A DNA stretch of 64,000 nt from assembly GCA_043814605.1 (NCBI GenBank), contig JBDRJV010000022.1, forward strand, positions 85,305 to 149,304, given 5' to 3'. This DNA is from Candidatus Omnitrophota bacterium. Its GTDB lineage: Bacteria; Omnitrophota; Gorgyraeia; B26-G9. Every line of letters starts with the position of its first letter. The stretch's first letter is position 1. Positions 18,041-63,019 of the stretch are shown here, in pieces. The notes beneath the pieces were generated by a model. It was not told the origin of the DNA and ran no database searches. It was given only the letters and a program-made list of their open reading frames with translations. The translations under genes and the position numbers were made by a program.

Positions 18041-19543
18041 TTATAATGAACAGTTATCGCATTTATGCTTTTTATTAAAATCAAAAATATGCCCCATTAC
18101 TTTAAAAAATGCTCGTGTAAAATATTTCATATCGTCAAGTTCTCTAATACTTAAAACTTTACGCATAATAAATTCCGGAGAAAAACTTATTGAATAAAGA
18201 CTTCGCACTAATTTCATTAAAATTTCCTGCGGAAACGGGATTTTCATCACCGGATTTTTCATGTCATAATAAGTCCAATCTAAGCTATACAGTAAATCTT
18301 TTTCCCGGCATTCATTAAATAAAGGAGTTCCCGGATATGGGATTACAATCGTTGATTGCATTGTATAAGCATAATCTTTTTTTAGTAACCATTTGCCTAA
18401 TTCTAAGGTATTTTGGGTATCTTCAAAACTTTCCCAAGGATAGCCAAACATAATTGTAATATGCGGATATAACCCGGCACTGCGCGCATTACGGCAGGAT
18501 TCAATTATGGTTTCTTTCCTAAGATTCTTTTTGATTTTATCTAATGTTTTCTGATTAGCTGATTCAATACCAAAAAGTAAAAAACGAAACCCGGCTTTAT
18601 GCATTAGTTTGTATTCTTCCAGACTTAAAGCGCCAAAACGCATATTGCAATCAAGTGTAACTTTCTTATTCAATCCGCGTTTAATCATGCCTGAGCAAAA
18701 TTCTCTCAACCACTCTCCTACAGGAAAACTACCGGAATCATCCATGATTTCTTTTACTTTTAACTCATTAACTAAATATTCAATTTCATCCAAGACATTA
18801 GCCGGTTTTCTACTTCTAAATTCAGGATATAAAACTGGCCAGGCGCAAAACGTGCATTTTCCCCACCAGCAATCTCTAGCACTCATAATATAAGTTCCCG
18901 GAGTCCTTCTAAAATTACCATTTTTATAAGCATATAACTTCCACTGTGTAAGTTTCCGGTCAATAAAAGGAAGTGTGTTTAAATCATGATTTAATTTAAA
19001 TTTTCCGGTATTTTTAATGTTTCCATTTTCTCTGTACCAGATTCCCGGCTCTAAATCAGCGGATAGCGAATAGCGATTAGCGGATAGTTTTAAGCTCTGG
19101 CAAAGGTTTAAAAGAAGAAAATCATAGTCCCCTCCGGTGAGCACAAAATCAACCAAAGAGTTGTCCATAGATTCTTCCGGTAAAGCGGTAACATGATCGC
19201 CGTATAAGACAACTAACGGCTGATAGCTCATAGCTGATTGCTGTTTAATATCATTGATTATTTTCCAGTGTTCCCTAACTACTGGAGTCTTTGTTTCGAT
19301 TGCAATCAGATCAGGTTTTTCTTTTTTTACAAAATTAAAAAACTTTTGATGACCCCATTCCATAGCAATGCAATCGTTCCAAATTACATTAAACCCCTCT
19401 CTTTTTAATAAAGACGCTGCTTGCGCCGGAACAACAGGATAGATATATGTAGGATCTTTAAAATACTGAAACTGCCTATTTTGAGAGAGTAAAGGTACCC
19501 CTTTGGTTTTGTCTAATGGAGGATAAGCTATCATTATTTTCAA
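18041..19543 (-). CDS. B12-binding domain radical SAM protein (second copy in the locus; cluster motif spaced CX4CX2C)
   Basis: N-terminal B12-binding-like domain, CWWGKCTFC Cys triad, 500 aa; contains an in-frame heptamer array at 19058-19087. Confidence 0.72.
   Translation of the reverse strand: MKIMIAYPPLDKTKGVPLLSQNRQFQYFKDPTYIYPVVPAQAASLLKREGFNVIWNDCIAMEWGHQKFFNFVKKEKPDLIAIETKTPVVREHWKIINDIKQQSAMSYQPLVVLYGDHVTALPEESMDNSLVDFVLTGGDYDFLLLNLCQSLKLSANRYSLSADLEPGIWYRENGNIKNTGKFKLNHDLNTLPFIDRKLTQWKLYAYKNGNFRRTPGTYIMSARDCWWGKCTFCAWPVLYPEFRSRKPANVLDEIEYLVNELKVKEIMDDSGSFPVGEWLREFCSGMIKRGLNKKVTLDCNMRFGALSLEEYKLMHKAGFRFLLFGIESANQKTLDKIKKNLRKETIIESCRNARSAGLYPHITIMFGYPWESFEDTQNTLELGKWLLKKDYAYTMQSTIVIPYPGTPLFNECREKDLLYSLDWTYYDMKNPVMKIPFPQEILMKLVRSLYSISFSPEFIMRKVLSIRELDDMKYFTRAFFKVMGHIFDFNKKHKCDNCSL
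19058..19087. repeat. Heptamer tandem array (AGCGGAT AGCGAAT AGCGATT AGCGGAT AG) inside the radical SAM ORF
   Basis: Read directly; 4.3 units of a degenerate 7-mer; GC-enriched versus flanks. Confidence 0.8.
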
Positions 19544-19544
19544 A

Positions 19545-20543
19545 TCAATTTTCCTCTTCTTTCATTTTTTTAGAACAAATTCCTTTTAGAAAAAAAAATC
19601 CGTAACAAATATGAGTAAAAAACATTCCACTTACAATAGGAATAAGCAGAAAAATTTTTTTCACAATTTTTAGCTGTTTATCTTTATATAAGCTCCATAA
19701 AACAGAAACAAATATAATGGAAAAATATAACAATAAACAAAAACTATAAATACTTCGCACAGTAGTATTCAGACAAGCTGTTACTACTCCGATTAAAACA
19801 AACAAAACAAACAAGCTGGGAATAAAATATACTATTTTACGTGAAGTTTCCGGAAATTTTTTGGCAAAATATCCCCGGTGCAAAGCATAATTAGCAACTT
19901 GTCTAAAATGCGCCGGACCCAAATTGCGGCGGAAATGATATACTAAAACATCCGGGTCATAAATAATTTTCATGCCTAGTTTTTTTGTAATATCCAGGCA
20001 TAATTTTGTATCCTCCCCCGGGTAAAAAGAACTGTCAAATCCGCCTAATTTTTCAAAGATACTTCTGCGCACAATAAAATTACATGATGGATAATCATTA
20101 ACTTGCATCTTTTTCTGAGGCAGATATCTATAAGTATACGGGCCACTAATAAAAACTGATGAAAAAATGTGTCCGCTGGCATGAGCTAAAACCGGGCTTT
20201 CCAAAGGGGTTATTGATGGCCCACCCACAGCAGCAACTTTAGAATCTTGAAAATTTTTCACAGCATTTATAAGCCAATCATGTTCAGGATATGCATCATC
20301 ATCTATAAAAGCAAAAATATCTGCCTGGGAATGTTTTAAAGCCATATCTCTTTTTTCCGCTGGCCCCATTGGCCCTGTAGGAATGCTTTTAATTTTATTT
20401 TTAAAATTTTCAAAGGGCTCATCCGGAAATATAATAATTTCAAACGATTTATAATCAAGTTTAAGACATTCCTCAATGCATTTCTTAAGGTTAACATTAA
20501 AGTGTTTAACCGGGATAATAATCGCCACTGATAAATTATTCAT
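19545..20543 (-). CDS. Family 2 glycosyltransferase with C-terminal transmembrane helices
   Basis: SVAIIIPVKHFN...DDDAYP GT2 core then two to four hydrophobic helices at C-terminus. Confidence 0.75.
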   Translation of the reverse strand: MNNLSVAIIIPVKHFNVNLKKCIEECLKLDYKSFEIIIFPDEPFENFKNKIKSIPTGPMGPAEKRDMALKHSQADIFAFIDDDAYPEHDWLINAVKNFQDSKVAAVGGPSITPLESPVLAHASGHIFSSVFISGPYTYRYLPQKKMQVNDYPSCNFIVRRSIFEKLGGFDSSFYPGEDTKLCLDITKKLGMKIIYDPDVLVYHFRRNLGPAHFRQVANYALHRGYFAKKFPETSRKIVYFIPSLFVLFVLIGVVTACLNTTVRSIYSFCLLLYFSIIFVSVLWSLYKDKQLKIVKKIFLLIPIVSGMFFTHICYGFFFLKGICSKKMKEEEN

Positions 20544-20586
20544 TTTTTAAAACCTCTCAAACAACACAGGTTTGCCCATCGGTAAT

Positions 20587-21882
20587 CTATAAAACAGGCC
20601 GGCCAACATCTGTATATCTAAATCCTAATTTTTTCATTCTTGCCGCTTCAAAAATATTCCTGGCATCAATAATAATAGGATGATTAAGCAGTTTTTTAAT
20701 CTTTAAAAGATTGAGCTTTTTAAATTCCGGCCATTCTGTGATAATAACTAATGCATCGCTGCCACGCGCAACATCATAAGCGTTTTTGCAAAAATCAACA
20801 TTCGGCAAAAGTTTTTTTGCATGTTCCATAGCTTTAGGATCATAAGCTTTTACCTGTGCCCCTTCACCTTGAAGCATTTTTATAATATCAATTGCCGGAG
20901 CACTACGAATATCATCAGTATTAGGTTTAAATGCAATTCCCAGAACACCAATATTTTTCCCGTTCAAAATCCATAAAGAATGTTCAATTTTTTTAAATAT
21001 TAGTTTCCTTTGTTTTTCATTAACGCGTTCGACTTCTTTTAAAATATCAAACTGACAATCCAGTTTTTCCGCAATTCGGATAAAGGCCTGAACATCTTTA
21101 GGGAAACAGCTTCCGCCATATCCAATCCCCGCTTTTAGGAAACTACTGCCTATCCTTTTATCTAAACCCATCCCTTCGGCTACCTTCTCTATATCTGCTC
21201 CGACTTTTTCGCAAATATTAGCCACAGAATTAATAAAAGAAATTTTCGTCGCTAAAAACGAATTGGAAGCATGTTTAATAATCTCTGCACTTTGAATATT
21301 TGTAACTACTATCGGAACTTTCAGCGGTTTATATAATTTCACTAGAAGCTTTTTTGCTTTTTCACTTTCCACCCCTAAAACCACCCGGTCAGGATGCATA
21401 AAATCATCAATTGCAGAACCTTCTTTTAAAAATTCCGGGTTTGAAGCAACATCAAAATCTATCTTGTGATTATTAAGCCGCATAATATATTTTACCCATT
21501 TATTTGTTTCAACCGGTACAGTGCTTTTTTCCACTACGACTTTATAATTATTCATATAGCGCGCCACATCCCGTGAAACTTGTTCGATATATCTTAAATC
21601 TGCATTACCGTCAGCCTTAGGAGGAGTTCCTACTGCAATAAATATTATTTTTGATTTTTCTACTGCCTTTTTTATATTTGTCGTAAAAAAAAGCTGTTTT
21701 TTTCTGCAATTTTTTTTGATTAACTTTTCTAATCCCGGCTCATAAATAGGGATTATGCCTTTATTCAATTCCTGTATTTTTTCTTCATTATTATCAACAC
21801 AAATAACCTTATTCCCGAGTTCGGCAAAACAAGTTCCAGAAACCAGCCCGACATATCCAGATCCTACGATAGCAATATTCAT
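20587..21882 (-). CDS. ugd: UDP-glucose 6-dehydrogenase (nucleotide-sugar dehydrogenase)
   Basis: MNIAIVGSGYVGLVSGTCFAELGNKV matches Ugd/TuaD N-terminus; 431 aa. Confidence 0.9.
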   Translation of the reverse strand: MNIAIVGSGYVGLVSGTCFAELGNKVICVDNNEEKIQELNKGIIPIYEPGLEKLIKKNCRKKQLFFTTNIKKAVEKSKIIFIAVGTPPKADGNADLRYIEQVSRDVARYMNNYKVVVEKSTVPVETNKWVKYIMRLNNHKIDFDVASNPEFLKEGSAIDDFMHPDRVVLGVESEKAKKLLVKLYKPLKVPIVVTNIQSAEIIKHASNSFLATKISFINSVANICEKVGADIEKVAEGMGLDKRIGSSFLKAGIGYGGSCFPKDVQAFIRIAEKLDCQFDILKEVERVNEKQRKLIFKKIEHSLWILNGKNIGVLGIAFKPNTDDIRSAPAIDIIKMLQGEGAQVKAYDPKAMEHAKKLLPNVDFCKNAYDVARGSDALVIITEWPEFKKLNLLKIKKLLNHPIIIDARNIFEAARMKKLGFRYTDVGRPVL

Positions 21883-21922
21883 TTTTATTTTTCCTTATTT
21901 TTATTAAATTCTAAATCCTGAT

Positions 21923-26008: not shown

Positions 26009-26845
26009 CTAATCCCTTATGATTAAGCCTTTTTTCTTTAAATAATCTTTAGTTTGCTTAATACTATATTTGCCGTAATGAAAAATAGAAGCAGCTAATA
26101 CTGCATCCGCACATCCTGCGCTTAAACCAGCATAAAGATGGGCTAAACTTCCGGCACCGCCTGAGGCAATAACCGGTATTTTTACTGCCTTTGATACTGC
26201 ACGTGTCAATTCCAGATCATAACCGGATTGTGTGCCGTCACAATCCATACTGGTGAGTAAAATTTCACCCGCGCCTAATTTTTCAACTTTTTTTACCCAT
26301 TGAATAACATCAATTCCAGTAGGTTTTCTTCCCCCGTAAATATACACTTCCCATGAAAGCTTCGACGAAGGACGAAGGACGAAAGACGAAGGACGATTTT
26401 TGAGACCTTTCCACTCTGTGGACTGTGGACTGTGGACTGTGGTCCGGCGCTTTGCATCCACTGCAACTACAATACACTGGTTACCGAATTTTCGTGCTGC
26501 TTTTTTAACAAGTTCAGGATTTTTCACCGCCGCTGTGTTTAAAGACACTTTATCCGCACCTTTTCTTAAGATTAATTCAATATCCGTAAGCGTTCTAATT
26601 CCTCCGCCAACTGTAAAAGGAATAAAAACTTCTTCGGCTGTTCTTTTGACCACATCCAGCATTGTTTTGCGATGTTCATGACTGGCGGTAATATCTAAAA
26701 AAACCACTTCATCCGCTCCCTGCTTTGAATACATCGCTGCCTGCTCAACCGGATCTCCGGCATCTCTGAGGTTGAGAAAATTTATTCCTTTAACCACCCT
26801 GCCGTTTTTCACATCCAGGCAGGGGATGATTCTTTTGGCCAACAT
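26009..26845 (-). CDS. hisF: Imidazole glycerol phosphate synthase cyclase subunit HisF, carrying a ~30-aa in-frame insertion
   Basis: [20 protein letters not shown] ... [20 protein letters not shown]; insertion [31 protein letters not shown] after DAKR, encoded by two heptamer arrays. Confidence 0.92.
26364..26396. repeat. Heptamer tandem array (GACGAAG x4.7, one unit GACGAAA) inside hisF
   Basis: Read directly. Confidence 0.85.
26417..26444. repeat. Heptamer tandem array (TGTGGAC x3, then TGTGGTC) inside hisF, 20 bp from the previous array
   Basis: Read directly. Confidence 0.85.
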
Positions 26846-27031
26846 ATAATTACCTCGTTTTACGGTAAAGGTTACGATGCCCGTATCGGCTTACGGTTAA
26901 GGCTAACGTCTTTTAAAATTCGTCCAAGCAGGGGATGATTAGTTTTGCCAACATATAGTTACCTCGTTTAACGGTAAAGGCTACGATGCCCGTATCGTCT
27001 TACGGTTAAGGTTAACGTCTTTTAAAATTTG
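26814..27031. repeat. 109-bp tandem direct repeat, 2 full copies (26814-26922 and 26923-27031) plus a third partial; copy 1 contains the hisF start codon and first ~10 codons, so copies 2 and 3 are decayed duplicates of the hisF 5' region
   Basis: Direct alignment of the two units shows about 11 mismatches of mixed type over 109 bp. Confidence 0.85.
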
Positions 27032-27407
27032 TCCAGGCATCCCCTAATTTATAGAGTTGCCTCCCTGACTTATCATACATATCTATAAGTTCTTCACATA
27101 AATCGATTTTTACAAAGTTAGAATAAAGATCTTTACATTGACTTAGGCTAACAATCATCTCATTACATTCTGCCATAGCGTCATCAATATACTTTTGAAA
27201 CCCGGCCTTCTGATGTCTTTTGGCATAACCTTCAGCAATTAACCTAGGAATTGTTTTGCATGCACGCCTTAATTGATCTACTAAATCAAATTTTTCACAA
27301 TCAGGCAATTTAGGAACAATCTCTTTCATTACCTTAAGCATTAGACTATATGTATTCTTATATACATCTAGATCATGAAAACTTGTGATCTTTTTATTAT
27401 TGTCCAT
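27012..27407 (-). CDS. Four-helix-bundle protein of the TIGR02436 family (23S rRNA intervening-sequence protein / Avd-like)
   Basis: FHDLDVYKNTY...LVDQLRRACKTIPRLIAEGYAKRH...AMAECNEM matches the family pattern F.DL.V...QxrRAAxSIPxNIAEGyxR. Confidence 0.85.
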   Translation of the reverse strand: MDNNKKITSFHDLDVYKNTYSLMLKVMKEIVPKLPDCEKFDLVDQLRRACKTIPRLIAEGYAKRHQKAGFQKYIDDAMAECNEMIVSLSQCKDLYSNFVKIDLCEELIDMYDKSGRQLYKLGDAWTNFKRR

Positions 27408-27470: not shown

Positions 27471-28103
27471 TTATTCTATTTCTCCCGCTATCTTACAAAA
27501 ATTTTCCAATATTTTTAATCCTAAATCAGAACTTTTTTCCGGATGAAATTGAATCCCATAGGTATTTTCTTTGGCAATAATACAGGCAAATTTCTGCCCG
27601 TACTCGGTTGTGGCCGAAACAAATTTTTTTTGCTTTGGCTTTGCATAATAAGAATGCACAAAATAAAAATATGATCCATCTTTAATTCCACTCAAGATGT
27701 TTTTACCTGCGGCTTGCGGCTTGCGACTTGAGACTTGTATCGTATTCCATCCCATATGCGGAATTTTTAAATTAGACTTAAATTTCACAACTTCCCCGGG
27801 AATTATATCCAGCCCCTTATGAACGCCGTGCTCATAACTCTTTGTTAATAACAGCTGCTGCCCCAAGCAAATACCTAAGAATGGCTTACCACAGGCTATC
27901 GCTGCCTTGATTTCCGGGATTAGTTTAAACTTACGCAAATTTTTCATACCGCTAGAAAATGCTCCGACTCCTGGTAAAATTAATGCCTTGGCCTGTTTTA
28001 ATTTATGAATGTTTGCAGTAACTTCGACTTTTGCTCCCACCTGCTCAAAAGCTTTAGCTACAGAATGCACATTTCCCATTCTATAATCAATTACGACAAT
28101 CAT
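27471..28103 (-). CDS. hisH: Imidazole glycerol phosphate synthase glutamine amidotransferase subunit HisH
   Basis: MIVVIDYRMGNVHSVAKAFEQVGA...GICLGQQLL...PHMGWN...YFVHSY; short in-frame heptamer-array insertion at 27707-27737. Confidence 0.92.
   Translation of the reverse strand: MIVVIDYRMGNVHSVAKAFEQVGAKVEVTANIHKLKQAKALILPGVGAFSSGMKNLRKFKLIPEIKAAIACGKPFLGICLGQQLLLTKSYEHGVHKGLDIIPGEVVKFKSNLKIPHMGWNTIQVSSRKPQAAGKNILSGIKDGSYFYFVHSYYAKPKQKKFVSATTEYGQKFACIIAKENTYGIQFHPEKSSDLGLKILENFCKIAGEIE
27707..27737. repeat. Heptamer tandem array (CTGCGGC TTGCGGC TTGCGAC TTGAGAC TTG) inside hisH
   Basis: Read directly. Confidence 0.8.
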
Positions 28104-30578: not shown

Positions 30579-31863
30579 TTGATAACGGAAATTATTAACC
30601 TAACCGGCCGGAAGGCCAGCAAAGGAGGCTATGCCATGAAGTCAGTAGATTTTTATAGTAGTAATGTAGCAAAGCAATGGCAGTATGTAAAGCGTAATTT
30701 ACGCGAGATGGGGTTATTGAAGATTACTGAAGGTTTGGATATAGAGACAAAGGCAAGGATGATCATAGAGCAGTTTTTTCAGCAAACAGTGTACGGGGAA
30801 TTCAGGAAACAGCTTCATGCGGATAGATATGAACGAAAAGCTGAACGCTATGATATACGTTCAGGATATTACAACAGAATGTTTACTAGTACATACGGCA
30901 TTTGTAATTTGCTTATTCCAAAAGTGAGGAAGAAAAGCCGGGAATATAACTATGAGTTATTTGATAAGTATCAGCGTAGGCAAAAGAAATTTGATGATAT
31001 GGTAGTATTGTCATTATTGTTGGGATTTTCTACGAGGAAACAGGAGCGATTTTTCAGGTCATTTATTGGAACAAGTGTAAGTCATAAGACGGCATCAAGT
31101 TTGATGCAAAATCTTAGTGATGATTTAAATGAATACCGCAACAAGAGAATCGAAGATAAATATAGATTTATATTTATTGACGCAATATGGGTAAACATAA
31201 AAGAGATAGACACTAAGAAGCGGCCGATATTATTTACAATGGGAATAAGTACCGATGGGCAACAAGAGATTATCGCGTTTAAGTTGGCAGAAGGCGAAAC
31301 AGAGCTAGAGTATACTAATTTTCTGAATGATCTTTACCGCAGAGGGCTGCAAGGTAAAGTATTGGAATTGATAATTCGACGGGTCTAAAGCAATTACATC
31401 AGCAGTAAAGACAATATACCCATATACGCCTAGGCAGCGTTGTTACACGCATAAATTAAGGAATTTACTGCAGAATATACGGTATAAGTTTAAACATAGA
31501 GCCAAGATATCAAAAGAAGTCAGAAATATATATAAAGCAGAGTCAAGGCAGGAAGCAATAAAAAGATTTAAAACATTTGTTGAAGCTTGGCGAAAAGTAG
31601 AACCTAAAGCGATTAAATGTTTTCAAGATGAGTTTTATAATACTCTTAATTTCTATGATTTTCCAAAGGAGATAAGAAGTGTGATTTCAACGACAAATCA
31701 TCTTGAGCGATTTTTAGAAGAAATTCGCCGAAGGATTAAGATTCAAGGGTATTTTAAAAGTGAAAGAAGCCTTAATCTTTGGATTTTTGGGCTTATTCAA
31801 CAAATACAACTAAAGCCCATACAACAACCTAAGAGAATGCTTAAAACTAAAAGTGCGAAATAA
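30579..31863 (+). mobile_element. IS256-family (Mutator-type) transposase gene disrupted by a single-nucleotide frameshift near 31375-31378. Likely true start ATG 30636 with AAAGGAGG SD; the C-terminal part 31378-31863 is in another frame
   Basis: N-part ...RRGLQGKVLELII then out-of-frame continuation DGSKAITSAVKTIYPYTPRQRCYTHKLRNLL (QRCxxHxxRN hallmark of IS256 transposases); combined length about 430 aa; IS ends not identified. Confidence 0.8.
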
Positions 31864-32167: not shown

Positions 32168-32243
32168 GCCGAGGTAGCTCAGTCGGTAGAGCGAGGGACT
32201 GAAAATCCCTGCGTGGGCGGTTCGATTCCGTCCCTCGGCACCA
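32168..32243 (+). tRNA. tRNA-Phe (anticodon GAA), CCA encoded
   Basis: GCCGAGGTAGCTCAGTCGGTAGAGC...GGACTGAAAATCC...GGTTCGATTCC...CCTCGGCACCA cloverleaf read by eye. Confidence 0.93.
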
Positions 32244-42000: not shown

Positions 42001-42033
42001 TTTAGCGTAAAACGAATAGCGTTTAGCGATTAG
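42001..42033. repeat. Heptamer array of the AGCGWWT family (TTTAGCG TAAAACG AATAGCG TTTAGCG ATTAG) in the purD-purE intergenic region; same family and orientation as 19058-19087
   Basis: Read directly. Confidence 0.75.
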
Positions 42034-42148: not shown

Positions 42149-42166
42149 CTAACCGCTAAACGCCGT
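42149..42166. repeat. Inverted partial copy of the AGCGWWT array (rc = CGTTTAGCGGTTAGC) forming an inverted pair with 42001-42033
   Basis: rc comparison by eye. Confidence 0.6.
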
Positions 42167-44564: not shown

Positions 44565-44594
44565 CTCTCTACTCTCTACTTGCTACTCGCTACT
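44565..44594. repeat. Heptamer tandem array (CTCTCTA CTCTCTA CTTGCTA CTCGCTA CTT) at the purM-purQ junction, overlapping the purQ stop
   Basis: Read directly. Confidence 0.8.
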
Positions 44595-47321: not shown

Positions 47322-47343
47322 AACTTACTCCTCATCCTCTAAT

Positions 47344-50271
47344 TTACCAGCGTAATGGACTCTGCCAGGCTTCTTTTAATTCATTAATAGTATAATTTAT
47401 CTTTAGCGCTCCATCAATCCCTTTAATCATAAATTTATTATTATCGGTTAGGTGCCCGAGGCAAGCAAAGGGAATTCCCTGGATAGTTTTCTCAAAAGAA
47501 TTTTTATGTTTTGGTTCTATCTCAACAATAAAACGAGAATTGGATTCAGAAAATAATAATACAGTGTCATTTAAATCCTGCGCCGGAATTTTGTGAATTA
47601 AAAATTTTAAATCAATCTCCATCCCCAGGCCTCCGGAAAACGCCATCTCTGCCATTGCCACAGCAATACCCCCTTCAGAACAGTCATGACATGAACGTAC
47701 CAGTTTTTTACGGGTTGCATAGCTGATCAGTTCAAAAATCTGCGCACTTTTTTTAAAATTAACCTGCGGCACATTCGGACTTCTAAGGTTCTGAACAGTG
47801 TTATAACTGCTGCCGCCCATTTCATCAAAAGTAGTACCGATACAATAGACTAAATTACCCGGCATTTTCGCATCTGCAGATATTACATTTTCCACATTAT
47901 CCATAACTCCCACAGCAGAAATCAGCAATGTCGGAGGTATGGAAATAATTTTATGCCCGATATTATATTCATTATTCAAACTATCTTTACCGGAAATAAA
48001 CGGAACCCCGAAAGCTAACGAAGCATCGCGAGCGCCAAAACAAGCACGCACCAGCTGCCCTAAAACTTTCGGCCGGGCAGTATTCCCCCAGCTAAAATTA
48101 TCTAAGAGGGCAACCTGTTTTAAATTCCCGCCCACACTGATTATCTGGCGCAAAGCTTCATCCACACAAGCTACGGCCATCCAATAGGGATCAATATCCG
48201 AATAACGCGAATTTATGCCGCAAGAAACAATAATTCCTTTTTTTGAATCAGGTTTTGGTTTTAATACTGCTGCATCCTGAGGCCCGTCATTATTAACTCC
48301 GGCTAATGGTTTTAAAACACTCATTCCCTGTACTTCATGATCATACTGCCGGATAATCCATTCCTTAGAACTAATATTTAAATCTGATAGTACTTTTAAA
48401 AGATCAGCGGTTAAATCTTTTTTTTGCCGCATGCTCATTTTTTTAATCACCGGCGGCTCCCAAACTGCAGTACGTTTAAATTTTGGCAATCCCTGATGCA
48501 AAAAATCCATATCTAAACTGCAAACACAATTTCTCTGATAAAACAATTCCAATCTTTTTGTGTTCGTAAACTTTCCGATAACTGCCGCTTCCACTGCTTC
48601 TTTTTCAAACAAAGACAATATTTTCTTTAACTTTTTACCCGGCACAGAAAAAACCATACGTTCCTGCGCTTCGGAAATCCACATTTCCGTATAACTTAAT
48701 CCGTCATATTTAAGCGGGATTTTATCTAAATCAACACGCGCACCTGTTTGTGCAGCCATTTCTCCCACAGCACTGGAAAATCCTCCGGCCCCGCAATCCG
48801 TAACAGCAGTGTACAATTTCTGGTCGCGTGCCTGGATCAGTGTATCCAAAACTTTTTTTTCAGTAATCGCATTTCCAATTTGTACTGCCCCGCTGGATAT
48901 GGCTTCTGATTCATGAGTTAATTCCACAGATGAAAAAGTTGCGCCGTGGATTCCGTCACGGCCGGTTCTGCCGCCGACAGCTACAATATATTCACCCGCA
49001 CTCACTTTTTTAAACGAATATTGTTTAGGCATGATCCCTAATGTCCCGCAATAAACTAAGGGGTTGCCGGTATACCGCTCATCAAAAACCACCGCTCCAT
49101 TGCAGGTAGGAATCCCCATACGATTTCCGTAATCGCGTACACCACTAACCACTCCTTGCATAATTCTTTTAGGATGCAAAACTCCCTGCGGTAATTTTTC
49201 CCTTTTCATTTCCGGCAAGCCAAAGCAAAAAACATCTGTATTCATTATGGGTTTTGCGCCCAAACCCACTCCTAATATATCGCGGATAACTCCGCCAATG
49301 CCTGTACCTGCTCCGCCGTAAGGATCAAGGGCTGAAGGGTGGTTATGGGTTTCAACCTTAAAACAAATATTATCTTTCTGGTCAAACTTAATAATTCCCG
49401 CATTATCCTGAAAAACAGAAACACACCAGGATTTATTCAGTTTTTTTGTAGCACTCATTATTGTGGTTTTAAGCAGATTTTTTATTATTCGTTTCTGTTT
49501 AGATTTCCGCAGGGTTTTATCGGTATAATCAATATTACCGCGCAGAGTTTTATGGACACAATGTTCTGACCAAGTTTGGGCCAGAGTTTCCAGTTCACAA
49601 TCCGTAGGATTTCTGCCAATTTTTTTATAATATTTCTTTATTACCTGCATTTCTTCAAGGGTGAGCGAGAGCTGGCCGGCTTTACTAATTTTCAACAGGC
49701 CCTGAGCATTTTGGTTTAAAATTTCAATTTCAATTTTTTTAAACTTATAATTTACATGTTTATGCGCATCCAGGGTTTTTTTTAAATCTTGAATTTTAAC
49801 TACATGCTGAATCACTTTATTATAAAGCAGTTTATCCCCGATAAATTCAAGCTGTTTTTTACTTAAAACACCTTTAATCAGGTATTGCCGGCCGGTATAA
49901 ACTGCGCTTATCTGTTTAAACCCTAAATCCCTGATGCCTTTAAGCGTACTTTCCTGCCAAGGATCCATAACTCCGGGGTTATAGGCAATTTCCAAAACAT
50001 GAAAATCTTTTTTTTCTTTAATTATAAATTTTTTATCATCCAGCATCCCCAATTTAAATGTTTGGATTACTGCGTCGCATAAGAGCTTTCTGCTTATTTT
50101 CTCAACCCAACTTTCAGCCTTCTTATTATTTTCTGATTCAATGATATAAACCTGAACCATTTTTACATCATTAACAGAATTAATTCCCAAATCAATAATT
50201 CCCCGTTTAACCCCCTCACCGATCGGATCAGAAATATTTGATTTATATTTTACTTCTACTCGCCAAAGCAT
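47344..50271 (-). CDS. purL: FGAM synthase II with two N-terminal PurS-like domains fused (PurS-PurS-PurL)
   Basis: Residues ~1-170: two copies of the PurS-like pattern (EVKYKSNISDPIGEGVKRGIIDLG..; HVLEIAYNPGVMDPWQESTLKGIRDLGF..); remainder canonical small PurL (AIR-synthase-related duplicated domains); 975 aa. Confidence 0.9.
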   Translation of the reverse strand: MLWRVEVKYKSNISDPIGEGVKRGIIDLGINSVNDVKMVQVYIIESENNKKAESWVEKISRKLLCDAVIQTFKLGMLDDKKFIIKEKKDFHVLEIAYNPGVMDPWQESTLKGIRDLGFKQISAVYTGRQYLIKGVLSKKQLEFIGDKLLYNKVIQHVVKIQDLKKTLDAHKHVNYKFKKIEIEILNQNAQGLLKISKAGQLSLTLEEMQVIKKYYKKIGRNPTDCELETLAQTWSEHCVHKTLRGNIDYTDKTLRKSKQKRIIKNLLKTTIMSATKKLNKSWCVSVFQDNAGIIKFDQKDNICFKVETHNHPSALDPYGGAGTGIGGVIRDILGVGLGAKPIMNTDVFCFGLPEMKREKLPQGVLHPKRIMQGVVSGVRDYGNRMGIPTCNGAVVFDERYTGNPLVYCGTLGIMPKQYSFKKVSAGEYIVAVGGRTGRDGIHGATFSSVELTHESEAISSGAVQIGNAITEKKVLDTLIQARDQKLYTAVTDCGAGGFSSAVGEMAAQTGARVDLDKIPLKYDGLSYTEMWISEAQERMVFSVPGKKLKKILSLFEKEAVEAAVIGKFTNTKRLELFYQRNCVCSLDMDFLHQGLPKFKRTAVWEPPVIKKMSMRQKKDLTADLLKVLSDLNISSKEWIIRQYDHEVQGMSVLKPLAGVNNDGPQDAAVLKPKPDSKKGIIVSCGINSRYSDIDPYWMAVACVDEALRQIISVGGNLKQVALLDNFSWGNTARPKVLGQLVRACFGARDASLAFGVPFISGKDSLNNEYNIGHKIISIPPTLLISAVGVMDNVENVISADAKMPGNLVYCIGTTFDEMGGSSYNTVQNLRSPNVPQVNFKKSAQIFELISYATRKKLVRSCHDCSEGGIAVAMAEMAFSGGLGMEIDLKFLIHKIPAQDLNDTVLLFSESNSRFIVEIEPKHKNSFEKTIQGIPFACLGHLTDNNKFMIKGIDGALKINYTINELKEAWQSPLRW

Positions 50272-50286
50272 GATGTTCCTATTTTA

Positions 50287-50321
50287 GGCTACAGGTAACA
50301 GGTTTCAGGTTACAGGCTAAA
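50287..50321. repeat. Heptamer tandem array (GGCTACA GGTAACA GGTTTCA GGTTACA GGCTAAA) in the purB-purL intergenic region
   Basis: Read directly; 5 units. Confidence 0.85.
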
Positions 50322-50325
50322 AGCT

Positions 50326-50363
50326 TTACCTGCTGCCGGATACTTGAAACCTGCCACTTGTAA
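50326..50363. repeat. Imperfect inverted copy of the preceding array (ACCTGCT GCCGGAT ACTTGAA ACCTGCC ACTTGTA), giving a long imperfect hairpin between purB stop and purL start
   Basis: rc of this segment (TTACAAG TGGCAGG TTTCAAG ...) aligns with 50287-50321. Confidence 0.65.
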
Positions 50364-51809: not shown

Positions 51810-54800
51810 CTATATTGCCTGACTTATTAAAGAAACCGGGCTTTTATTAAATCCTAATGTTTGCCTAATTGATTTAATGCTGACTTTTGGTAATTTAGAT
51901 ATTAATCTTTGGGCTAAAGTTGTACTTTTTAATTGATGGCTGTTTTTTAATAAAAGGGATATTGCTTTATTCACAACATCCTGATTCTGAGCCTGGGCAG
52001 CAATATTTCTAAATATTGACAATCTTCTATCCGGGAAAGAGTTCTCATATAAAATATCCAGCATAGATAAAGCCTCTCTACTTGATAAATTTGCCCTGAT
52101 TATATTTTTTGCCGCAGCACGGTTTCTGTTGTTTAAAATTGCCAGTGCTGTTTTTGCCATGGCAACAAGGTTTTTCCTGTCCTTATCTAAACTTTGAGTT
52201 TCGATAATACCCTTTAAAACTTTTTTATACGATTTTAATTTCATTTTCGCCGCTGTATAAAACAAAACCCTGAGTGCTGATTCTCTGCCTTGACCTAAAC
52301 AATCTCCTAATAGTTCTCCAAATTTTACCCATTGTTCATGGTTAAAATCACTTTTTTTAAATTGCGCCAGTATAAAAACACTTTCCTCTAAATTCGCGAT
52401 TTGATAAGAATCAAGAAGCAATTGAATACTTTCTGAATTTGGATATGAAGATACTGCTTGCAAATATTTTTGGGTTGTACTCCAGGAGTACTTCATAGAA
52501 AACTTTTTAACATTAAAATATTTAGTAAGGATTTTAAACCCGTGAGCACAAATGTTTTCGTTTTTTTGTAAAATATTAAAAATCTCTTCATCATAACTAA
52601 GTTTTCTATAACTATCGCTTAAGTACTGCTCAATTAGTTTCAACCCTACTTGTGCTTTATAATCTTTTTGCTGCTGTTTTAAATAATTCTCATGCGCAAT
52701 TACCAGTTTAATAACAGTTGTTCTTATCCATTCTTTTTCTGTCATAAAATAAGCTGCATCATCAAACCTCTGCAGGCAATATTCTAAAAAACTTTGTTTT
52801 GTCAGCAACAGTTTTTTTACCCAAGGGTGTACACCAAAACCGCCCCGGTCTAAATCTCCGCCGTAAAACATCCCGTTCCAGGCATCTAAAGACCCGGTCT
52901 GCATTATTGCCAGCCCTTTACCTGCGCCTAAACTGGCAAACATGTAGTCAGAAATTTTTTCCTGATCAGTTTTAAGTATACCCTGTAAAAAATTTCTTAT
53001 TCGATAAAATAATCCACCCTGCTCCGAGTCACCATTTACTAAATATTTTGCGGCAAGTTTTCCTAATGTTTCATTAGCATACCCGCCTAATTCGGATAGA
53101 TACCCATTGCTGCTTATACTGGCAATCCTGCTCCAGGCTAAAATATTTTCATATATAGGCAATTTCGGCTTTCGCTGAACTTCTCCTAAGCTGGCAATCA
53201 ACCTGGCCGCAAGCAATATTTCAAATCTTTGTTCTGTAAGGTTAGAATTAGGCTGCATTATTTGGCTAAAGCGGCTGTTAATGTTTTTTATTATTAATGC
53301 GTAAGTATTTTTGCCGGCTAATCTGCCGATCATCTGAAAATATTTAACTAATTTATGATACTCGCTAAAACTGCTTGTCTTAAATAATTTCGCTAGTTTA
53401 TCCTTATCTTCCCTATTTACCTCAAATTCTGTAATAAATTCATTTAATAAATTTTGCGCAAACTTATCCTGTTTATTTATTAATTCCTTTTTTTGCGCCT
53501 CGGTTGATTGATTATAAACTTCTTGCAAAAATTCAAAATACTGTTCATCAATTTTACCTTGAGCAAATTTATTCAGGACAAAATTAACAACATTTTCAGA
53601 TAAACTATCCGTATCTCTTACCTGCGGCCATTGGACATTAAAACCTTTGGCAGAATTAAGCGCATTATAAAGCACACTCAAAATATTCTTTCCCGCTCTT
53701 TCCGGAGAATAAAACTGCCCGTTACTTGCTGGAAATTCTTCACTAAGGTTATTTTCGAGTTTCTTCTGCGCTCCCAGAATATTCTCAGAATCAGGCAACC
53801 TGGGAATTTCTATCAGATATTCCGGCTGAGTTAAAACATAATCAAAAACTTTTTCTGATAATTCACTAAACTGTATGTTCGCTTCCTTTTGAATCCTTTG
53901 ATCTAAAAAAATCATCTGGAATGCAATTCTGGTCTTAAAAAACTCATATCTTGAATTATTAAAATCAGAAAACATCATTTTTATTATTGGATTTACTCCC
54001 CCATTAAATATTCCATACTTGTACGGATCCTGGTTTAACTCAAAAAATATTTGTTCTACATTATCAAGATAAACAGTATAATCACGGCTGTATGCATTTC
54101 TTAACAAAATATCGTATAAACTTTCTTTGTGATCTCTGTGGATGAGATCAAATCCACAAATTAATTTAGTAGTTAAGGCCCGGTCATGACTACTATGCCT
54201 TTTATAGGCAATTTCAATTATACTTTTTAAAAAAGTCAGTTTTTCTTGATCATAAAAATATACAGAGTTTTGTAGCTGTTGAATTGCGTATAGAGCATGG
54301 TTTCTTGCCTCCGAGATATTACTTTCCTCTAGCGCATATTTTATAAGCCAATTCATTGCCGCTTCTATCGGTTCATTTGTTTTCTTTTTACTTAAATCAT
54401 AAAAATGTTTTTCCTCTTGCATTTTTCCCAATAAACGTATTGTACTCTCTTTTTTAATCAGTTCTTCTATCTCTCCGTCGATGGGAAAAATCGCCTTACT
54501 AAACATGTCCGCTGTGGTATCTTTAAATTTATTCTGATACACTCTTTCTAAGATGTCATCTATTTCTAAAACAAGTTCTTTTGCTTGGTTATCCCCGGCT
54601 CTTACACAATCATATTTAATTTTCAGTAAAAAGGCATACGCTATTTTTACATATAAAGGAGCGCCCCATTTCAAAAAATTCTCAAACACAAAAAATAACT
54701 CTGCATCCGGCTCCATATGAGAAATCATAACCAATGCAGAAAGATTAGTATATTTTTTATCTTCCTGTATAACTTTTTTAATTTTATTTTTGAGTTTAGA

Positions 54801-57023
54801 ATTTTTATGGGAATTATTAGCTAAGAATTCAATCAGGGAAAAATTAAAGCGGTGAATATCCCTCATCAGATCATCAATAATATTGCTTTCAACTATAAGC
54901 TCAGCTGCATTTTTTGAAAGTCCTGTTTTTTCTAAAATATTGGCATATAAATCATAGAAATACGTAATTTTTTCTTCTGTCAGAACGCTGGTAATTTTTT
55001 CTGACACCCGGGGTTTTAGTTCATCCGGGATATCACACTCTGATAAAAGCTCTAAAGCAACCATTAATCTTTCTGAATTATGTCCGTTAATTTGTTTTGT
55101 CGCTTGAGAAAGAATATATTCCACGGATTTAACTCTATCTTCAGCTGTACCCACTTTATTCAAAACATAATTTGCTGCAATCTTAACCACCATATTTTCC
55201 GGTAAATCATCTGTATCTAAATAAGGCTGGATTAATAAACGGATAAAACCTTTTTCTTTTTCTGTTCTCTGGGAGAAATTTAAAAGCGAAACAATCTGCC
55301 CCGCACGGACTTCGGGAGTAATTTTCCCATCCCGAACCGCTAAAATATTATCCATTGCCTCTTGGCTGGCTGGGGTTATGAAAATGTTCGTCAAATCAGC
55401 TGCTTTGGCTAACTGCATAAAAGATTTTTTTACTCTCCAGTTATAATTATTATCCTTTAATAAACATTTAAACAAAGCCACTGTTGCTGCATAACTGCAG
55501 GGTGTATTTTGGTCAGCTTTTTCAGCTAAAATAAGTAATAATTCATCATTAAAATATAAAGAACCTTCTACCTGTTCCATCGCGCGTAGAGCCACTTTTG
55601 GATCATTTGCAGTAATCATTTTTTTGAGGGAATTAACCTTATCAGGGGACAACATACTCACACTTGTAATTAAGGCAGGTGAAGGAAAATTCTCCAAAGA
55701 TAAATTCGCTTTTCTTATATCTGAATCCTTCTCATATTGCTGTAAAAAATTATTTACAACTTCCCAGTTTTCAACTTTTCCGTTTTTATATATCTTTTCA
55801 ATTCCGTAGAAAATTAAATAATGATACCTAGCCTCAAGTTCTTTTACCCGCATGAGTAACGAATCAATTGCTGAATAAACCTGGGCATCGCCAATAAATT
55901 GTAAAAGAAAATAATTTCTGATTATCTGGATAACGTTATTTGTCTGTTGAGCTTTGATCTCTGTTTTAAATTTGGCTAAAAAAGCTCTGGCTAATGATTT
56001 GTGCAGCCTCCATCTTTCTTCATTCTCATCAATACTTTCTTTCTTAAGTGTTTTAAGTTGCCAAATTACGCTAAAAGACGGCTTCATATTGCCTAAAAAT
56101 ATCACATAAAAAGCCGGCTCCATAACTTTTCTGGCGATCTTCTGTAAAAACTTATGTTTGTTGGCATTTACAGCCAGCATTTCAATTAATTCAAAACGGT
56201 CTGGTCCCAAAAGATGTGTATCCATAAATAATCGGTCATATAATTTTGCCGCTTTTATAGTTAGTCCGGTTTTTTTTAGAATTTTAGAACAGCCTCTAAC
56301 GCCTTTACCAATTCCTTTAACCTGTACTTGAGCAATGCGAAAAGATAAATCCTCTTGCATATTTACCGGTATCTCGCATTGAGCTAGCAATTTTATAGCC
56401 AGATTAATATTTTCAAGACTGTATTCATTGACCTTAAGCTCAGCTGCCTGTAAAAGTTTAGTTACGGATGTGATTTTTTCTTCGGCATTACCCATCCAGT
56501 TTAGTACATAATTTGCAGCGATTCTTTCCGGCATGCTCATCGAATCCAATAAGGGAGTAATTAATAACCGTAAAACCTCTTTTTCATGTTCTGTTTCAAC
56601 TTTTATTTCAGCCAGGGCTGTAATAATTCCGGCTCTGACCATAGGTGTTTGTGCTTGTTTTGTATTTTTTAAAAATTTCCCAAATAATTCTGCGTGGTCC
56701 TGGGTAACAAAAAATTCAATAAGCTTATCTGCTGCCTGGGGAAATAATTTTTTAAATAAAAGGGGTAGATTTTTACCCATAAAATTTTTTCCTATTAATT
56801 CGGAGGAATTCACCTGGCTAATTTTATTTAGGACATCAATGCCCTCTTTTAAATATGCTTGTTGAATATCTGCTAATTTCAGCGAAATATGCGGCGATAA
56901 TGTTGTTTTTTGTTCTGGTTTATTATTCAGAGTTTGGGCAATTAAGCTTGAGGAAAAACCAGTTAAAATAAATGATGGGATCAGCATTAAGGAAATCAAT
57001 TTGAAAAATATTCTCTTACGCAT
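51810..57023 (-). CDS. Giant (1737 aa) secreted alpha-helical repeat protein of unknown function with a large internal duplication
   Basis: N-terminal signal peptide (KLISLMLIPSFILTGFSSSLIAQ); K/E/L-rich helical composition; residues ~130-230 and ~580-680 are clearly homologous (VRAGIITALAEIKVETEHEKEVLRLLITPLLD... vs VRAGQIVSLLNFSQRTEKEKGFIRLLIQPYLD...). Confidence 0.6.
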   Translation of the reverse strand: MRKRIFFKLISLMLIPSFILTGFSSSLIAQTLNNKPEQKTTLSPHISLKLADIQQAYLKEGIDVLNKISQVNSSELIGKNFMGKNLPLLFKKLFPQAADKLIEFFVTQDHAELFGKFLKNTKQAQTPMVRAGIITALAEIKVETEHEKEVLRLLITPLLDSMSMPERIAANYVLNWMGNAEEKITSVTKLLQAAELKVNEYSLENINLAIKLLAQCEIPVNMQEDLSFRIAQVQVKGIGKGVRGCSKILKKTGLTIKAAKLYDRLFMDTHLLGPDRFELIEMLAVNANKHKFLQKIARKVMEPAFYVIFLGNMKPSFSVIWQLKTLKKESIDENEERWRLHKSLARAFLAKFKTEIKAQQTNNVIQIIRNYFLLQFIGDAQVYSAIDSLLMRVKELEARYHYLIFYGIEKIYKNGKVENWEVVNNFLQQYEKDSDIRKANLSLENFPSPALITSVSMLSPDKVNSLKKMITANDPKVALRAMEQVEGSLYFNDELLLILAEKADQNTPCSYAATVALFKCLLKDNNYNWRVKKSFMQLAKAADLTNIFITPASQEAMDNILAVRDGKITPEVRAGQIVSLLNFSQRTEKEKGFIRLLIQPYLDTDDLPENMVVKIAANYVLNKVGTAEDRVKSVEYILSQATKQINGHNSERLMVALELLSECDIPDELKPRVSEKITSVLTEEKITYFYDLYANILEKTGLSKNAAELIVESNIIDDLMRDIHRFNFSLIEFLANNSHKNSKLKNKIKKVIQEDKKYTNLSALVMISHMEPDAELFFVFENFLKWGAPLYVKIAYAFLLKIKYDCVRAGDNQAKELVLEIDDILERVYQNKFKDTTADMFSKAIFPIDGEIEELIKKESTIRLLGKMQEEKHFYDLSKKKTNEPIEAAMNWLIKYALEESNISEARNHALYAIQQLQNSVYFYDQEKLTFLKSIIEIAYKRHSSHDRALTTKLICGFDLIHRDHKESLYDILLRNAYSRDYTVYLDNVEQIFFELNQDPYKYGIFNGGVNPIIKMMFSDFNNSRYEFFKTRIAFQMIFLDQRIQKEANIQFSELSEKVFDYVLTQPEYLIEIPRLPDSENILGAQKKLENNLSEEFPASNGQFYSPERAGKNILSVLYNALNSAKGFNVQWPQVRDTDSLSENVVNFVLNKFAQGKIDEQYFEFLQEVYNQSTEAQKKELINKQDKFAQNLLNEFITEFEVNREDKDKLAKLFKTSSFSEYHKLVKYFQMIGRLAGKNTYALIIKNINSRFSQIMQPNSNLTEQRFEILLAARLIASLGEVQRKPKLPIYENILAWSRIASISSNGYLSELGGYANETLGKLAAKYLVNGDSEQGGLFYRIRNFLQGILKTDQEKISDYMFASLGAGKGLAIMQTGSLDAWNGMFYGGDLDRGGFGVHPWVKKLLLTKQSFLEYCLQRFDDAAYFMTEKEWIRTTVIKLVIAHENYLKQQQKDYKAQVGLKLIEQYLSDSYRKLSYDEEIFNILQKNENICAHGFKILTKYFNVKKFSMKYSWSTTQKYLQAVSSYPNSESIQLLLDSYQIANLEESVFILAQFKKSDFNHEQWVKFGELLGDCLGQGRESALRVLFYTAAKMKLKSYKKVLKGIIETQSLDKDRKNLVAMAKTALAILNNRNRAAAKNIIRANLSSREALSMLDILYENSFPDRRLSIFRNIAAQAQNQDVVNKAISLLLKNSHQLKSTTLAQRLISKLPKVSIKSIRQTLGFNKSPVSLISQAI

Positions 57024-62811: not shown

Positions 62812-62998
62812 GAATTCAATATAAGTATTTTGAATTTTATTGTAACATACAATCTATAATACTAAAAGTACAAACTAGCGGAACCAAAAACAAGCGTCTG
62901 ACTGTTTTTTCTCGTTCTGGACATTAACCAGGCTGGGGAATGGGTAACGTTGACTTTCAGACTTTTTATGATATAATTCAATTACTTAATTTATCCAG

Positions 62999-63019
62999 GC
63001 AACAGGTTACAGGTAGCAA
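62999..63019. repeat. Heptamer array of the same GGNWACA family (GGCAACA GGTTACA GGTAGCA) upstream of tRNA-Glu
   Basis: Read directly; 3 units. Confidence 0.65.

Follow-up and report, generated by a model that had tools for sequence, protein, structure and literature searches.

Short heptanucleotide tandem arrays in operon spacers and enzyme surface loops of a Candidatus Omnitrophota genome

A 64,000-nt stretch of the genome of a Candidatus Omnitrophota bacterium (GenBank assembly GCA_043814605.1, contig JBDRJV010000022.1, positions 85,305 to 149,304; hereafter the window) is sprinkled with short tandem arrays of 7-nt units, several of which lie in-frame within genes for conserved enzymes, and this raises the question of what generated them and why they are found where they are. 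In the initial annotation of the window, ten such tracts were listed, assigned to a few families of GC-rich units and ascribed to an active or recently active process, namely replication slippage seeded by a mobile motif or an element resembling a miniature inverted-repeat transposable element (MITE). According to the analysis presented here, the tracts are probably heptanucleotide simple-sequence repeats (long SSRs) similar to the short tandemly repeated repetitive (STRR) sequences of cyanobacteria, born by slippage or template switching and kept at permissive sites. Three observations carry this reading. There is an excess of short arrays (3–5 units, 16–34 nt) which is specific to period 7 and independent of the unit sequence; the arrays persist only at permissive places, that is, in operon spacers and in disordered surface loops of enzymes; and the same permissive sites hold arrays in many species with differing units.

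All ten listed tracts, when read directly, have the sequences that were attributed to them. Tandem Repeats Finder (TRF) reported seven period-7 arrays in the window, with 3.3–4.7 copies and 79–100% match. Six of these correspond to listed tracts, namely 19058–19087 (4.3 copies), 26364–26396 (4.7), 26416–26442 (3.9, 100% match), 27708–27730 (3.3), 44565–44594 (4.3) and 50286–50316 (4.4), and the seventh, 19219–19243 (3.6), located in the same gene as 19058, had been overlooked. A strict lag-7 detector found 5 arrays in the window against 0.08 expected from 100 Markov-2 shuffles of it (shuffle maximum 1), which is about a 60-fold excess, and with the same detector and shuffles no excess was seen at periods 4–6 or 8–12. 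The period-7 arrays therefore exceed chance in the very comparison that the initial annotation had proposed. The tracts at 42001, 42149, 50326 and 62999 are too degenerate for either TRF or the lag-7 detector, three of them being backed as arms of inverted pairs (42149 with 42001, and 50326 with 50287). Most of the ten tracts are thus real arrays or arms of inverted pairs, the one that did not stand being 62999–63019 (no strand assigned), which has three degenerate units resembling ACAGGTW some 50 nt 5′ of tRNA-Glu, shows no structure on folding (z +1.08) and is not separable from chance. After the arrays had been masked, the lag-7 autocorrelation of non-coding DNA was 0.316 versus 0.30–0.32 at neighbouring lags, with no residual signal, so the arrays are discrete features. 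The same flat autocorrelation rules out the idea, also considered, that decayed heptamers pervade the spacers.

Assembly artefacts are excluded as the source of the arrays: the purD-purE tracts are present at 99.96% identity in a sequence from ENA (L001), and two independent assemblies, L002 and L003, carry an identical set of five arrays. The enrichment in GC is real within the window, where most tracts have values of 0.46–0.61 versus 0.35 (with 42001 at only 0.36), but it is specific to the units of this genome and not general, with AT-rich units such as ACTTTTA and AAGTTAA occurring in relatives.

The excess extends beyond the window. When syntenic loci from ten further assemblies of Omnitrophota and the Planctomycetes-Verrucomicrobia-Chlamydiae (PVC) group were pooled with it (261 kb in total), 42 period-7 arrays were found versus 4.0 expected (maximum of 9 in 30 shuffles), about a 10-fold excess, and periods 5, 6, 8, 9 and 10 stayed near expectation. 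Of the 42 arrays, 29 lie in-frame inside genes, and non-coding DNA has a 5.3-fold higher array density. In 78 HisF-centred loci of other phyla (1.22 Mb), which served as a control panel, there are 2.3 period-7 arrays per 100 kb versus about 16–18 in Omnitrophota loci (17.7 in the panel comparison), the rates being equal at other periods. The outgroup arrays cluster in a few genomes, namely a Nitrospirota metagenome-assembled genome (MAG), a Blastocatellales MAG, a Planctomycetia MAG and an archaeon, so heptamer richness is a genome-level trait, pronounced in Omnitrophota yet shared with other lineages. The proposed use of the arrays as a lineage marker is not supported, as they are enriched in Omnitrophota but occur also in Nitrospirota, Acidobacteriota, Planctomycetota, the archaeon and viral contigs.

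Some of the outgroup arrays deserve a separate description. The archaeal hisF (L044, 10453–10483) contains (GACCGAA)4.4 in the HisF loop which is occupied in the window. The Blastocatellales MAG (L024; 6215–6387, 9886–9996 and 14748–14775) has five arrays, all of the unit AATCCGC, in inverted pairs which form a very stable hairpin (z −6.3), and the Nitrospirota MAG (L019; 4090–4169, 9146–9209 and 19112–19166) has three inverted pairs with a hairpin z-score of −4.0.

A metagenome scan for (ACAGTCC)2.7, the unit being that of an array in the hisF gene of the window, matched at least 120 contigs with a GC content of 0.33–0.70. In the 80 loci kept of those, the copy number ranges from 3 to 20 and the density of other heptamer arrays is 21 per 100 kb. 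In long open reading frames (ORFs), the orientation is biased, with STVHSPQ encoded in 13 of 15 cases and not the reverse-strand GLWTVDC. The array is found in-frame in LeuRS, an Ile/Val-type tRNA synthetase, UvrA, Mfd, a GlmM-like mutase (phosphohexomutase), MoeA and a GltD-like oxidoreductase of unrelated metagenome organisms; in-frame occupancy of conserved enzymes, considered unusual at first, is thus common in environmental genomes. Among viral contigs, ACAGTCC gave 9 matches, three composition-matched permuted heptamers gave 54, 8 and 26, and three matched octamers of equal copy number gave 0, 0 and 2. Since permuted heptamers are common and octamers nearly absent, the bias is one of period and not of sequence, and ACAGTCC had to be rejected as a favoured unit. 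The longest arrays of this unit, (ACAGTCC)n of 14–20 units in the metagenome contigs L096, L099, L114, L116, L129 and L167, exceed any array in Omnitrophota, and several of the contigs with long arrays come from one metagenome assembly (JAEEGL01...).

In the window, the arrays reported to be in-frame in hisF, hisH and the gene for a B12-binding radical SAM protein (B12-rSAM) are indeed so, and their number comes to five, with two arrays in hisF, one in hisH and two in the radical SAM gene. The latter gene occupies positions 18041–19543. Its site 1 (19219–19243, minus strand) consists of 3.6 units reading TATCAGC/TATGAGC in the coding direction and encoding QQSAMSYQP (aa 101–109) according to TRF and translation, and its site 2 (19058–19087, minus strand) consists of 4.3 units reading CTATCCG/CTAATCG/CTATTCG and encoding LSANRYSLSA (aa 153–162) according to TRF, the lag-7 detector and translation. 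At the same two aligned positions, the orthologue in L004 carries GTYGACN (GTCGACA/GTTGACT) and AACTTTN, respectively. The hisH array (27707–27737, minus strand; TRF and translation) comprises about four coding units CAAGTCT/CAAGTCG/CAAGCCG and encodes QVSSRKPQAAG immediately after the conserved HMGWNTI. Six of the seven hisH orthologues have an array after this motif, the unit being CAAGYCG in the window, CAAGACR in L005 and AAGTYAA in L002, L004, L086 and L088.

The HisF loop holds array A (26416–26444, minus strand), with 3.9 perfect coding units of ACAGTCC (TRF, 100% match) translated as TTVHSPQST, and array B (26364–26396, minus strand), with 4.7 coding units of CTTCGTC (TRF, 92% match) translated as 12 residues. 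In relatives, this loop is a mosaic with one to four arrays per species; array A is common to the window and L004, with 29 of 31 nt identical. Across 33 aligned homologues, the segment between DAKR and WEVY has a length of between about 6 and about 70 residues, the remainder of the protein being highly conserved. In an AlphaFold model of HisF (predicted template modelling score 0.84), the predicted local distance difference test value falls below 50 exactly at residues 137–161, between the strands formed by residues 125–133 and 165–169, so that the array insert is predicted to be a disordered surface loop. Another shared position is found in purQ near codon 137, where the window has no array, L089 has GACAGAA, L091 has ACCAGTT and L090 has a decaying remnant. 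The orthologue comparison recommended in the initial annotation therefore revealed shared array positions with differing units in hisF, hisH, the radical SAM gene and purQ, as well as in the purQ-purM spacer, and in the enzymes the arrays read as low-complexity peptides with a 7-residue period. Apart from its arrays, the L004 orthologue of the radical SAM gene (18424–20837; product of 987 aa) differs from the copy in the window in that it contains an intein with Intein_splicing and LAGLIDADG domains.

Non-coding arrays usually start at or over the upstream stop codon and finish 9–46 nt before the next start codon, and the TAG stops of purQ and purD are contained in the arrays at 44565 and 42149, respectively. 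The description of the arrays in the pur operon as inverted pairs stands for the purB-purSL and purD-purE spacers, both with significant hairpins, but not for the purQ-purM spacer. The purB-purSL hairpin (50287–50363, minus strand; TRF at 50286–50316, and folding) is imperfect, being formed by two inverted arrays of the ACAGGTW family, and fills the spacer, starting at the purB stop and ending 15 nt short of the purSL start codon. The pairing of 50287–50321 with 50326–50363 has an energy of −30.5 kcal/mol and a z-score of −4.05, with none of 200 shuffles as stable. At the purD end, the tract 42149–42166 (minus strand, transcribed ACGGCGT TTAGCGG TTAG, 2.5 units) covers the last six purD codons and the TAG stop. 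As the 5′ arm, it pairs with the degenerate tract 42001–42033 (minus strand, transcribed CTAATCG CTAAACG CTATTCG TTTTACG), which ends 16 nt 5′ of the purE start, in a stem of about 20 bp with a 115-nt loop in the minimum free energy structure (z −2.65; 0 of 200 shuffles as stable). The array in the purQ-purM spacer (44565–44594, minus strand; TRF and direct reading) is transcribed as TAGCGAG TAGCAAG TAGAGAG TAGAGAG, the first TAG being the purQ stop. It is solitary and unstructured when folded, the inverted partner arm of the relatives having been lost and the spacer being down to 70 nt.

In relatives, there are no conserved counterparts of the purD-purE and purB-purSL arrays. In contrast to the single arm TAGNGAG of the window, the purQ-purM arrays in L089, L090 and L091 form an inverted pair, ATGAATT/AACTCAT in L089 and L090 and TAAGNNN/ACTTANN in L091, giving a long hairpin located 5′ of the purM ribosome-binding site (RBS), about 15–20 nt from the purM start (z −4.3, −3.5 and −1.3 in L089, L090 and L091, respectively). 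The 199-nt spacer of L089 and L090 (9802–10000 in both) contains the heptamer-armed hairpin with an invariant AT-rich core and is 92.5% identical between the two, as compared with 74–88% for the surrounding genes, 59–65% for third codon positions and 34–76% for other spacers, and may be regarded as a candidate conserved non-coding RNA element. Inverted arrangements are also seen in coding regions. The first and second arrays of the HisF loop are roughly complementary in L002, L004, L006 and L086, the hairpin being significant for L002 only (z −3.3, −0.9, −1.9 and −1.7, respectively), and four intragenic arrays have an inverted partner 300–430 nt away in the adjoining spacer. At the gathering threshold, Rfam 15 detected only tRNAs in the window and in L089–L091, and no family fits the array elements. 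HutP-like UAG-N4 sites, suggested by the purQ-purM sequence UAGCGAG UAGCAAG, were rejected as the arrays of relatives at that site have no UAG.

Whether the generating process is still at work was assessed from close pairs. The array copy number is unchanged between the window and L001 (99.96% identity), between L002 and L003 (99.4–99.9% identity, five arrays), between L097 and L110 (94%) and between L089 and L090 (about 80% identity). Within these pairs the arrays alter by substitution only, and wholesale replacement of units is seen only at deeper divergence; the purQ array, for instance, is about 69% identical between L089 and L090 as counted from the alignment, with the periodicity fading in L090. 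With no copy-number change at nucleotide divergences of 0.04%, 0.5%, 6% and about 20%, the active or recently active process postulated earlier leaves no visible trace over short spans of time. Given the small sample and the short arrays, the missing polymorphism weakens the case for active slippage without affecting how the arrays are classified structurally. The sole length difference between the near-identical L002 and L003 is an indel of about 47 nt beside a dispersed inverted repeat of about 99 nt (L002 2600–2697 and 6671–6740; L003 1257–1363).

If the arrays are long SSRs, their birth would be due to replication slippage or short-range template switching favouring a 7-nt register, as in the polymerase-footprint idea that later papers credit to Mrazek et al. 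(2007), and inverted pairs might result from template switching across a hairpin. Selection would then purge arrays outside spacers and tolerant loops and favour the strand encoding hydrophilic, stop-free peptides. Old arrays would decay and others would be born, or turn over in place, at the few sites that tolerate them, and such decay and rebirth would lead to apparent positional conservation accompanied by unit turnover.

There are several points which weigh against this interpretation. Active SSR slippage is characteristically recognised by copy numbers that vary between close strains, and no such variation was observed, so that slippage is inferred from the pattern and not seen directly, and births must be rare or episodic. 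Slippage alone leaves the 7-nt register unexplained. Some arrays are better kept than neutral DNA, as is the case for the ACAGTCC array shared by the window and L004 and for the L089/L090 spacer compared with the neighbouring genes. The hairpin arms remain complementary while their sequence differs between species, which is not explained by slippage either. Besides, the evidence comes from 64 kb of this genome.

The main rival explanation, which is compatible with an origin by slippage, is that the intergenic arrays at least are selected cis-acting RNA elements, either heptamer-armed hairpins or 7-nt protein-binding sites. Candidate binders would be cold-shock proteins or S1-type proteins with an oligonucleotide/oligosaccharide-binding (OB) fold, and the elements would control processing, stability or translation initiation of the mRNA of the downstream gene. 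We hold this possible, if tentative. It draws on the significant hairpins of purB-purSL, purD-purE, L089, L090, L024 and L019, on the complementarity of the arms kept despite the change of units between L089/L090 and L091, on the identity of the L089/L090 purQ-purM spacer, which is above that of genes, third codon positions and other spacers, and on the short distance between the ends of non-coding arrays and the next start codon. The repeats of the TAACTGA family described elsewhere are likewise located just 5′ of start codons, and CspB binds heptamer repeats (PMC4679880). Several arrays, however, are solitary and unstructured (44565, 27708, 19058 and the HisF loop of the window), the window has lost one purQ-purM arm, and the arrays of the other two pur spacers are not kept in relatives. 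There is no motif common to the sites and no Rfam family for them, the L091 hairpin is not significant, and intragenic arrays obey the same rules with no obvious RNA role.

A stronger version of this idea would be that a distinct, perhaps dedicated, period-7 process in bacteria, archaea and phages keeps writing hairpin-forming, translatable inserts at the same sites, the hairpin versions being selected as cis-acting RNA in operons and even in coding regions. It seems unlikely to us, although, if true, it would explain the co-varying arms, the 92.5% identity of the spacer versus about 60–65% at third codon positions and the re-arising of arrays at identical codons.

A miniature mobile element with inverted ends made of heptamer arrays and in-frame insertion, either MITE-like or similar to the Rickettsia palindromic elements, is quite improbable as the source. 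Inverted pairs do flank AT-rich cores of about 20–120 nt, there are in-frame inserts in conserved enzymes, units of the AGCGNNT type are present at four sites of the window (19058, 42001, 42149 and 44565), and the spacer element of L089 and L090 is near-identical despite about 20% genome divergence. On the other hand, array-bearing segments proved to be single-copy throughout the 64-kb window and about 330 kb of related DNA, each matching only itself or its orthologue, and similarity between sites is confined to the 7-nt unit. The array segments include inverted arms, but several arrays are solitary, and no target-site (flanking direct) duplication or fixed terminus was recognised. The only feature of the window resembling a dispersed repeat is a 109-bp tandem duplication described below. 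Contrary to the few unit families and the mobile motif suggested initially, the units are diverse, with most of the near-identical unit pairs being orthologues; a limited repertoire, tested as within-genome sharing of units, gave no significant excess (p = 0.07). Permuted heptamers are as frequent, and orthologous sites carry different units.

The known palindromic elements differ in similar ways. The Rickettsia palindromic elements, said to have been described by Ogata and colleagues in 2000 as selfish DNA lying in-frame in protein-coding genes, resemble the arrays in being hairpin-forming inserts (of about 100 nt) placed in-frame in surface loops of conserved proteins, but they form a high-copy family with a conserved consensus and lack tandem heptamers, and here neither a consensus nor second copies were found. 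Repetitive extragenic palindromic (REP) sequences and bacterial interspersed mosaic elements (BIME) are intergenic palindromes of enterobacteria with a genome-wide consensus, mobilised by REP-associated tyrosine transposases (RAYT). As with these, imperfect hairpins are found here in spacers of polycistronic operons, in positions compatible with mRNA stabilisation, but each hairpin in the window is unique, no consensus is shared among the hairpins, and no Y1 transposase (RAYT) gene is present among the window genes. In the relative L086, there are two genes of Y1 (IS200/RAYT-type) transposases (263–1204 and 2371–3321) a few kb from hisH/hisF, one of them fused to a DnaA C-terminal domain.

It is very improbable that the intragenic arrays are contingency loci switching genes of the polysaccharide cluster by gain or loss of one unit (phase variation): since 7 is not a multiple of 3, such slippage would indeed cause a frameshift, the genes hisH, hisF and rSAM lie in a polysaccharide-biosynthesis cluster, a typical setting for phase variation, and heptanucleotide phase variation is known from Haemophilus hmw1A (PMC8262952), but the arrays have only 3–5 units, which are imperfect, and lie in the middle of genes, the ORF is intact in every orthologue, copy numbers do not differ between near-identical strains, and similar arrays occur in purQ, tRNA synthetases, UvrA, Mfd and spacers. 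Equally hard to accept is selection at the protein level for a useful linker or loop with a 7-residue repeat, which the identical loop positions across species and the bias towards hydrophilic peptides (13 of 15) might suggest: with a period of 7 at the nucleotide level, successive units are read in three frames, and protein-level selection would conserve a 21-nt or amino-acid periodicity and not 7-nt identity, besides which the peptides at the same site are unrelated between species, the loops vary from 6 to about 70 residues with some close relatives lacking an array, the insert is predicted to be disordered, and identical array types occur in non-coding spacers. Thus the MITE-like, phase-variation, protein-selection and artefact explanations each fail a direct test.

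The interpretation of the arrays as long SSRs agrees with what is known about heptanucleotide repeats, and this kind of element is not new, heptanucleotide over-representation having been reported for Xanthomonas, Nostoc and Beggiatoaceae. STRR units of heterocystous cyanobacteria include CCCCAGT, TTGGTCA and CAACAGT. None of the units found here matches these, and the host belongs to Omnitrophota, so that the arrays are not STRR sequences in the strict sense. The analogy drawn in the initial annotation is supported nevertheless by the dispersed heptamer arrays of few units and their frequent occurrence in operon spacers. Cyanobacterial genomes have few dominant STRR units each, with up to 26 copies and a potential to form G-quadruplexes, as opposed to many units, at most five copies and no G-tracts in the window.

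According to Mrazek et al. (2007), as related in PMC4692102 and PMC4679880, among long SSRs, heptanucleotides are the commonest class in most prokaryotic genomes, and about 7 nt was proposed to be the stretch contacted by the polymerase, favouring slippage. As far as they are represented in these sources, earlier SSR surveys dealt with cultured Burkholderia, cyanobacteria, actinobacteria and Xanthomonas and found in-gene repeats to be mostly multiples of three. The arrays described here share with such long SSRs, as thus related, the tandem 7-nt units, the over-representation of period 7, the character of a genome trait varying between lineages and the proposed slippage in a 7-nt register. They differ from those survey findings in belonging to an MAG of an uncultured omnitrophotan and, for 29 of the 42, in being placed in-frame in genes at positions common to species. 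The Xanthomonas GGGAATC and Nostoc GGGGAYT repeats are located mainly between co-oriented ORFs, near or overlapping stop codons and sometimes as inverted pairs (PMC4692102), and about one third of the Nostoc GGGGA(C/T)T repeats are intragenic (PMC4692102). Like the arrays of the window, the Xanthomonas repeats lie within 50 bp of stop or start codons and include convergent inverted pairs able to form stem-loops, and they are found between the same gene pairs in related species with variable length and sequence (PMC4692102).

The TAACTGA repeats of Beggiatoaceae, cyanobacteria and Bacteroidetes consist of 2–6 units placed just 5′ of start codons and over upstream stops; read in the opposite direction they encode LSVISYQ, the copies within ORFs being found chiefly at the ends of proteins or in hypothetical proteins, and scrambled versions of the unit form no repeats in that genome (PMC4679880). 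The peptide LSVISYQ resembles QQSAMSYQP of the window and LSAISHK of its relatives, and the ACTGATA-like unit GCTGATA of the window is one base away from the TAACTGA family. Instead of one favoured unit, however, many units are present here, with arrays in mid-protein loops of conserved enzymes. A literature search for tandem repeats in Omnitrophota returned no report of such heptamer repeats.

What is added is the phylum Omnitrophota, with a high density of arrays and many unit types; clean examples of identical loop positions (HisF, HisH, B12-rSAM, PurQ) with unrelated units across species; and the permuted-unit and octamer controls, which show a sequence-independent period-7 bias reaching viral contigs and core enzymes of many uncultured organisms. 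This bears on the dominance of 7-nt units among prokaryotic long SSRs, a question standing since 2007. Such arrays repeatedly add disordered loops to conserved proteins and can confuse alignments, orthologue-length statistics and stop-codon gene calling, and they are candidate intra-operon RNA structures.

As for the genomic context, the window has a GC content of 0.349 and nearly all its genes are on the minus strand. The statement that its gene content is not cyanobacterial was borne out, the host being Candidatus Omnitrophota; HisF and PurM are 100% identical to proteins so named at NCBI. The polysaccharide-biosynthesis cluster includes hisH, a PF05635 gene (four-helix-bundle protein, "23S rRNA intervening sequence"), hisF and a LarE-like PP-loop gene. 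It is followed by an IS256-type transposase fragment and tRNA-Phe, nrdD, nrdG and nrdR, then by genes for dCMP deaminase, glyA, rpiB and tsaC, the pur operon (purB, a purS-purL fusion, a GGDEF gene, purQ, purM, purD and purE) and a 1737-aa ORF without a family match. Both hisF and hisH pass the NCBIfam equivalog cut-offs. The PP-loop gene and the glycosyltransferase neighbours suggested that they might be the polysaccharide paralogues WbuY/WbuZ, which NCBIfam rejects: the HisF score is 390 versus a cut-off of 294.6, the WbuZ score is 284 versus 299.7, and the PP-loop protein is LarE-like.

Within the cluster, a glycosyltransferase of family GT1 is broken into two overlapping ORFs (6524–7363 and 6148–6585; overlap 6524–6585, minus strand) at an A11 homopolymer near 6531–6541, which is either phase-variable or the result of a sequencing error. 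A truncated transposase ORF of the IS256/Mutator family (30579–31388, plus strand; 269 aa, covering profile positions 18–226 of 379) lies about 800 nt from tRNA-Phe (32168–32243, plus strand) at the boundary of the polysaccharide cluster and the nrd genes, which is the sole stretch of the window with a positive GC skew. The PurS-PurL fusion (975 aa) and the gene for a GAF-GGDEF diguanylate cyclase between purSL and purQ (45384–50271, minus strand) are both kept in L089, L090 and L091. The 1737-aa ORF (51810–57023, minus strand), located between a C39-peptidase/TPR gene and purB and having no Pfam or NCBIfam match, is absent from these three loci, which are otherwise perfectly syntenic, indicating a lineage-specific insertion of a giant gene.

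The PF05635/TIGR02436 gene (27012–27407, minus strand), coding for a four-helix-bundle "23S rRNA intervening sequence protein" (IVP) which is weakly bAvd-like, has counterparts in L002 (7739–8077), L004 (9549–9944 and 18034–18378) and L086 (5696–6055). The gene separates hisH from hisF in the window, L002 and L004, precedes hisH in L086 and is missing from L005, L087 and L088. Such placements resemble those of a movable cassette carrying its own RBS/ATG module at the downstream end; flanking heptamer stems such as those of 23S rRNA intervening sequences were sought, and no convincing inverted repeat was found around it. The 109-bp tandem duplication mentioned above (26814–27039; 2.1 copies, 91% identity) covers the 3′ end of the IVP ORF, the RBS and the first 11 hisF codons, so that a decoy ORF MLAKLIIPCLDEF* precedes the real hisF. 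Its junction lies at the microhomology TGCCTGGA, which is common to the 3′ end of the IVP gene and hisF codons 9–11. The module, of about 85 nt, is met again three times in L004 (8551–8627, 8743–8799 and 9917–10003), at 87–94% identity, and is better kept than the genes.

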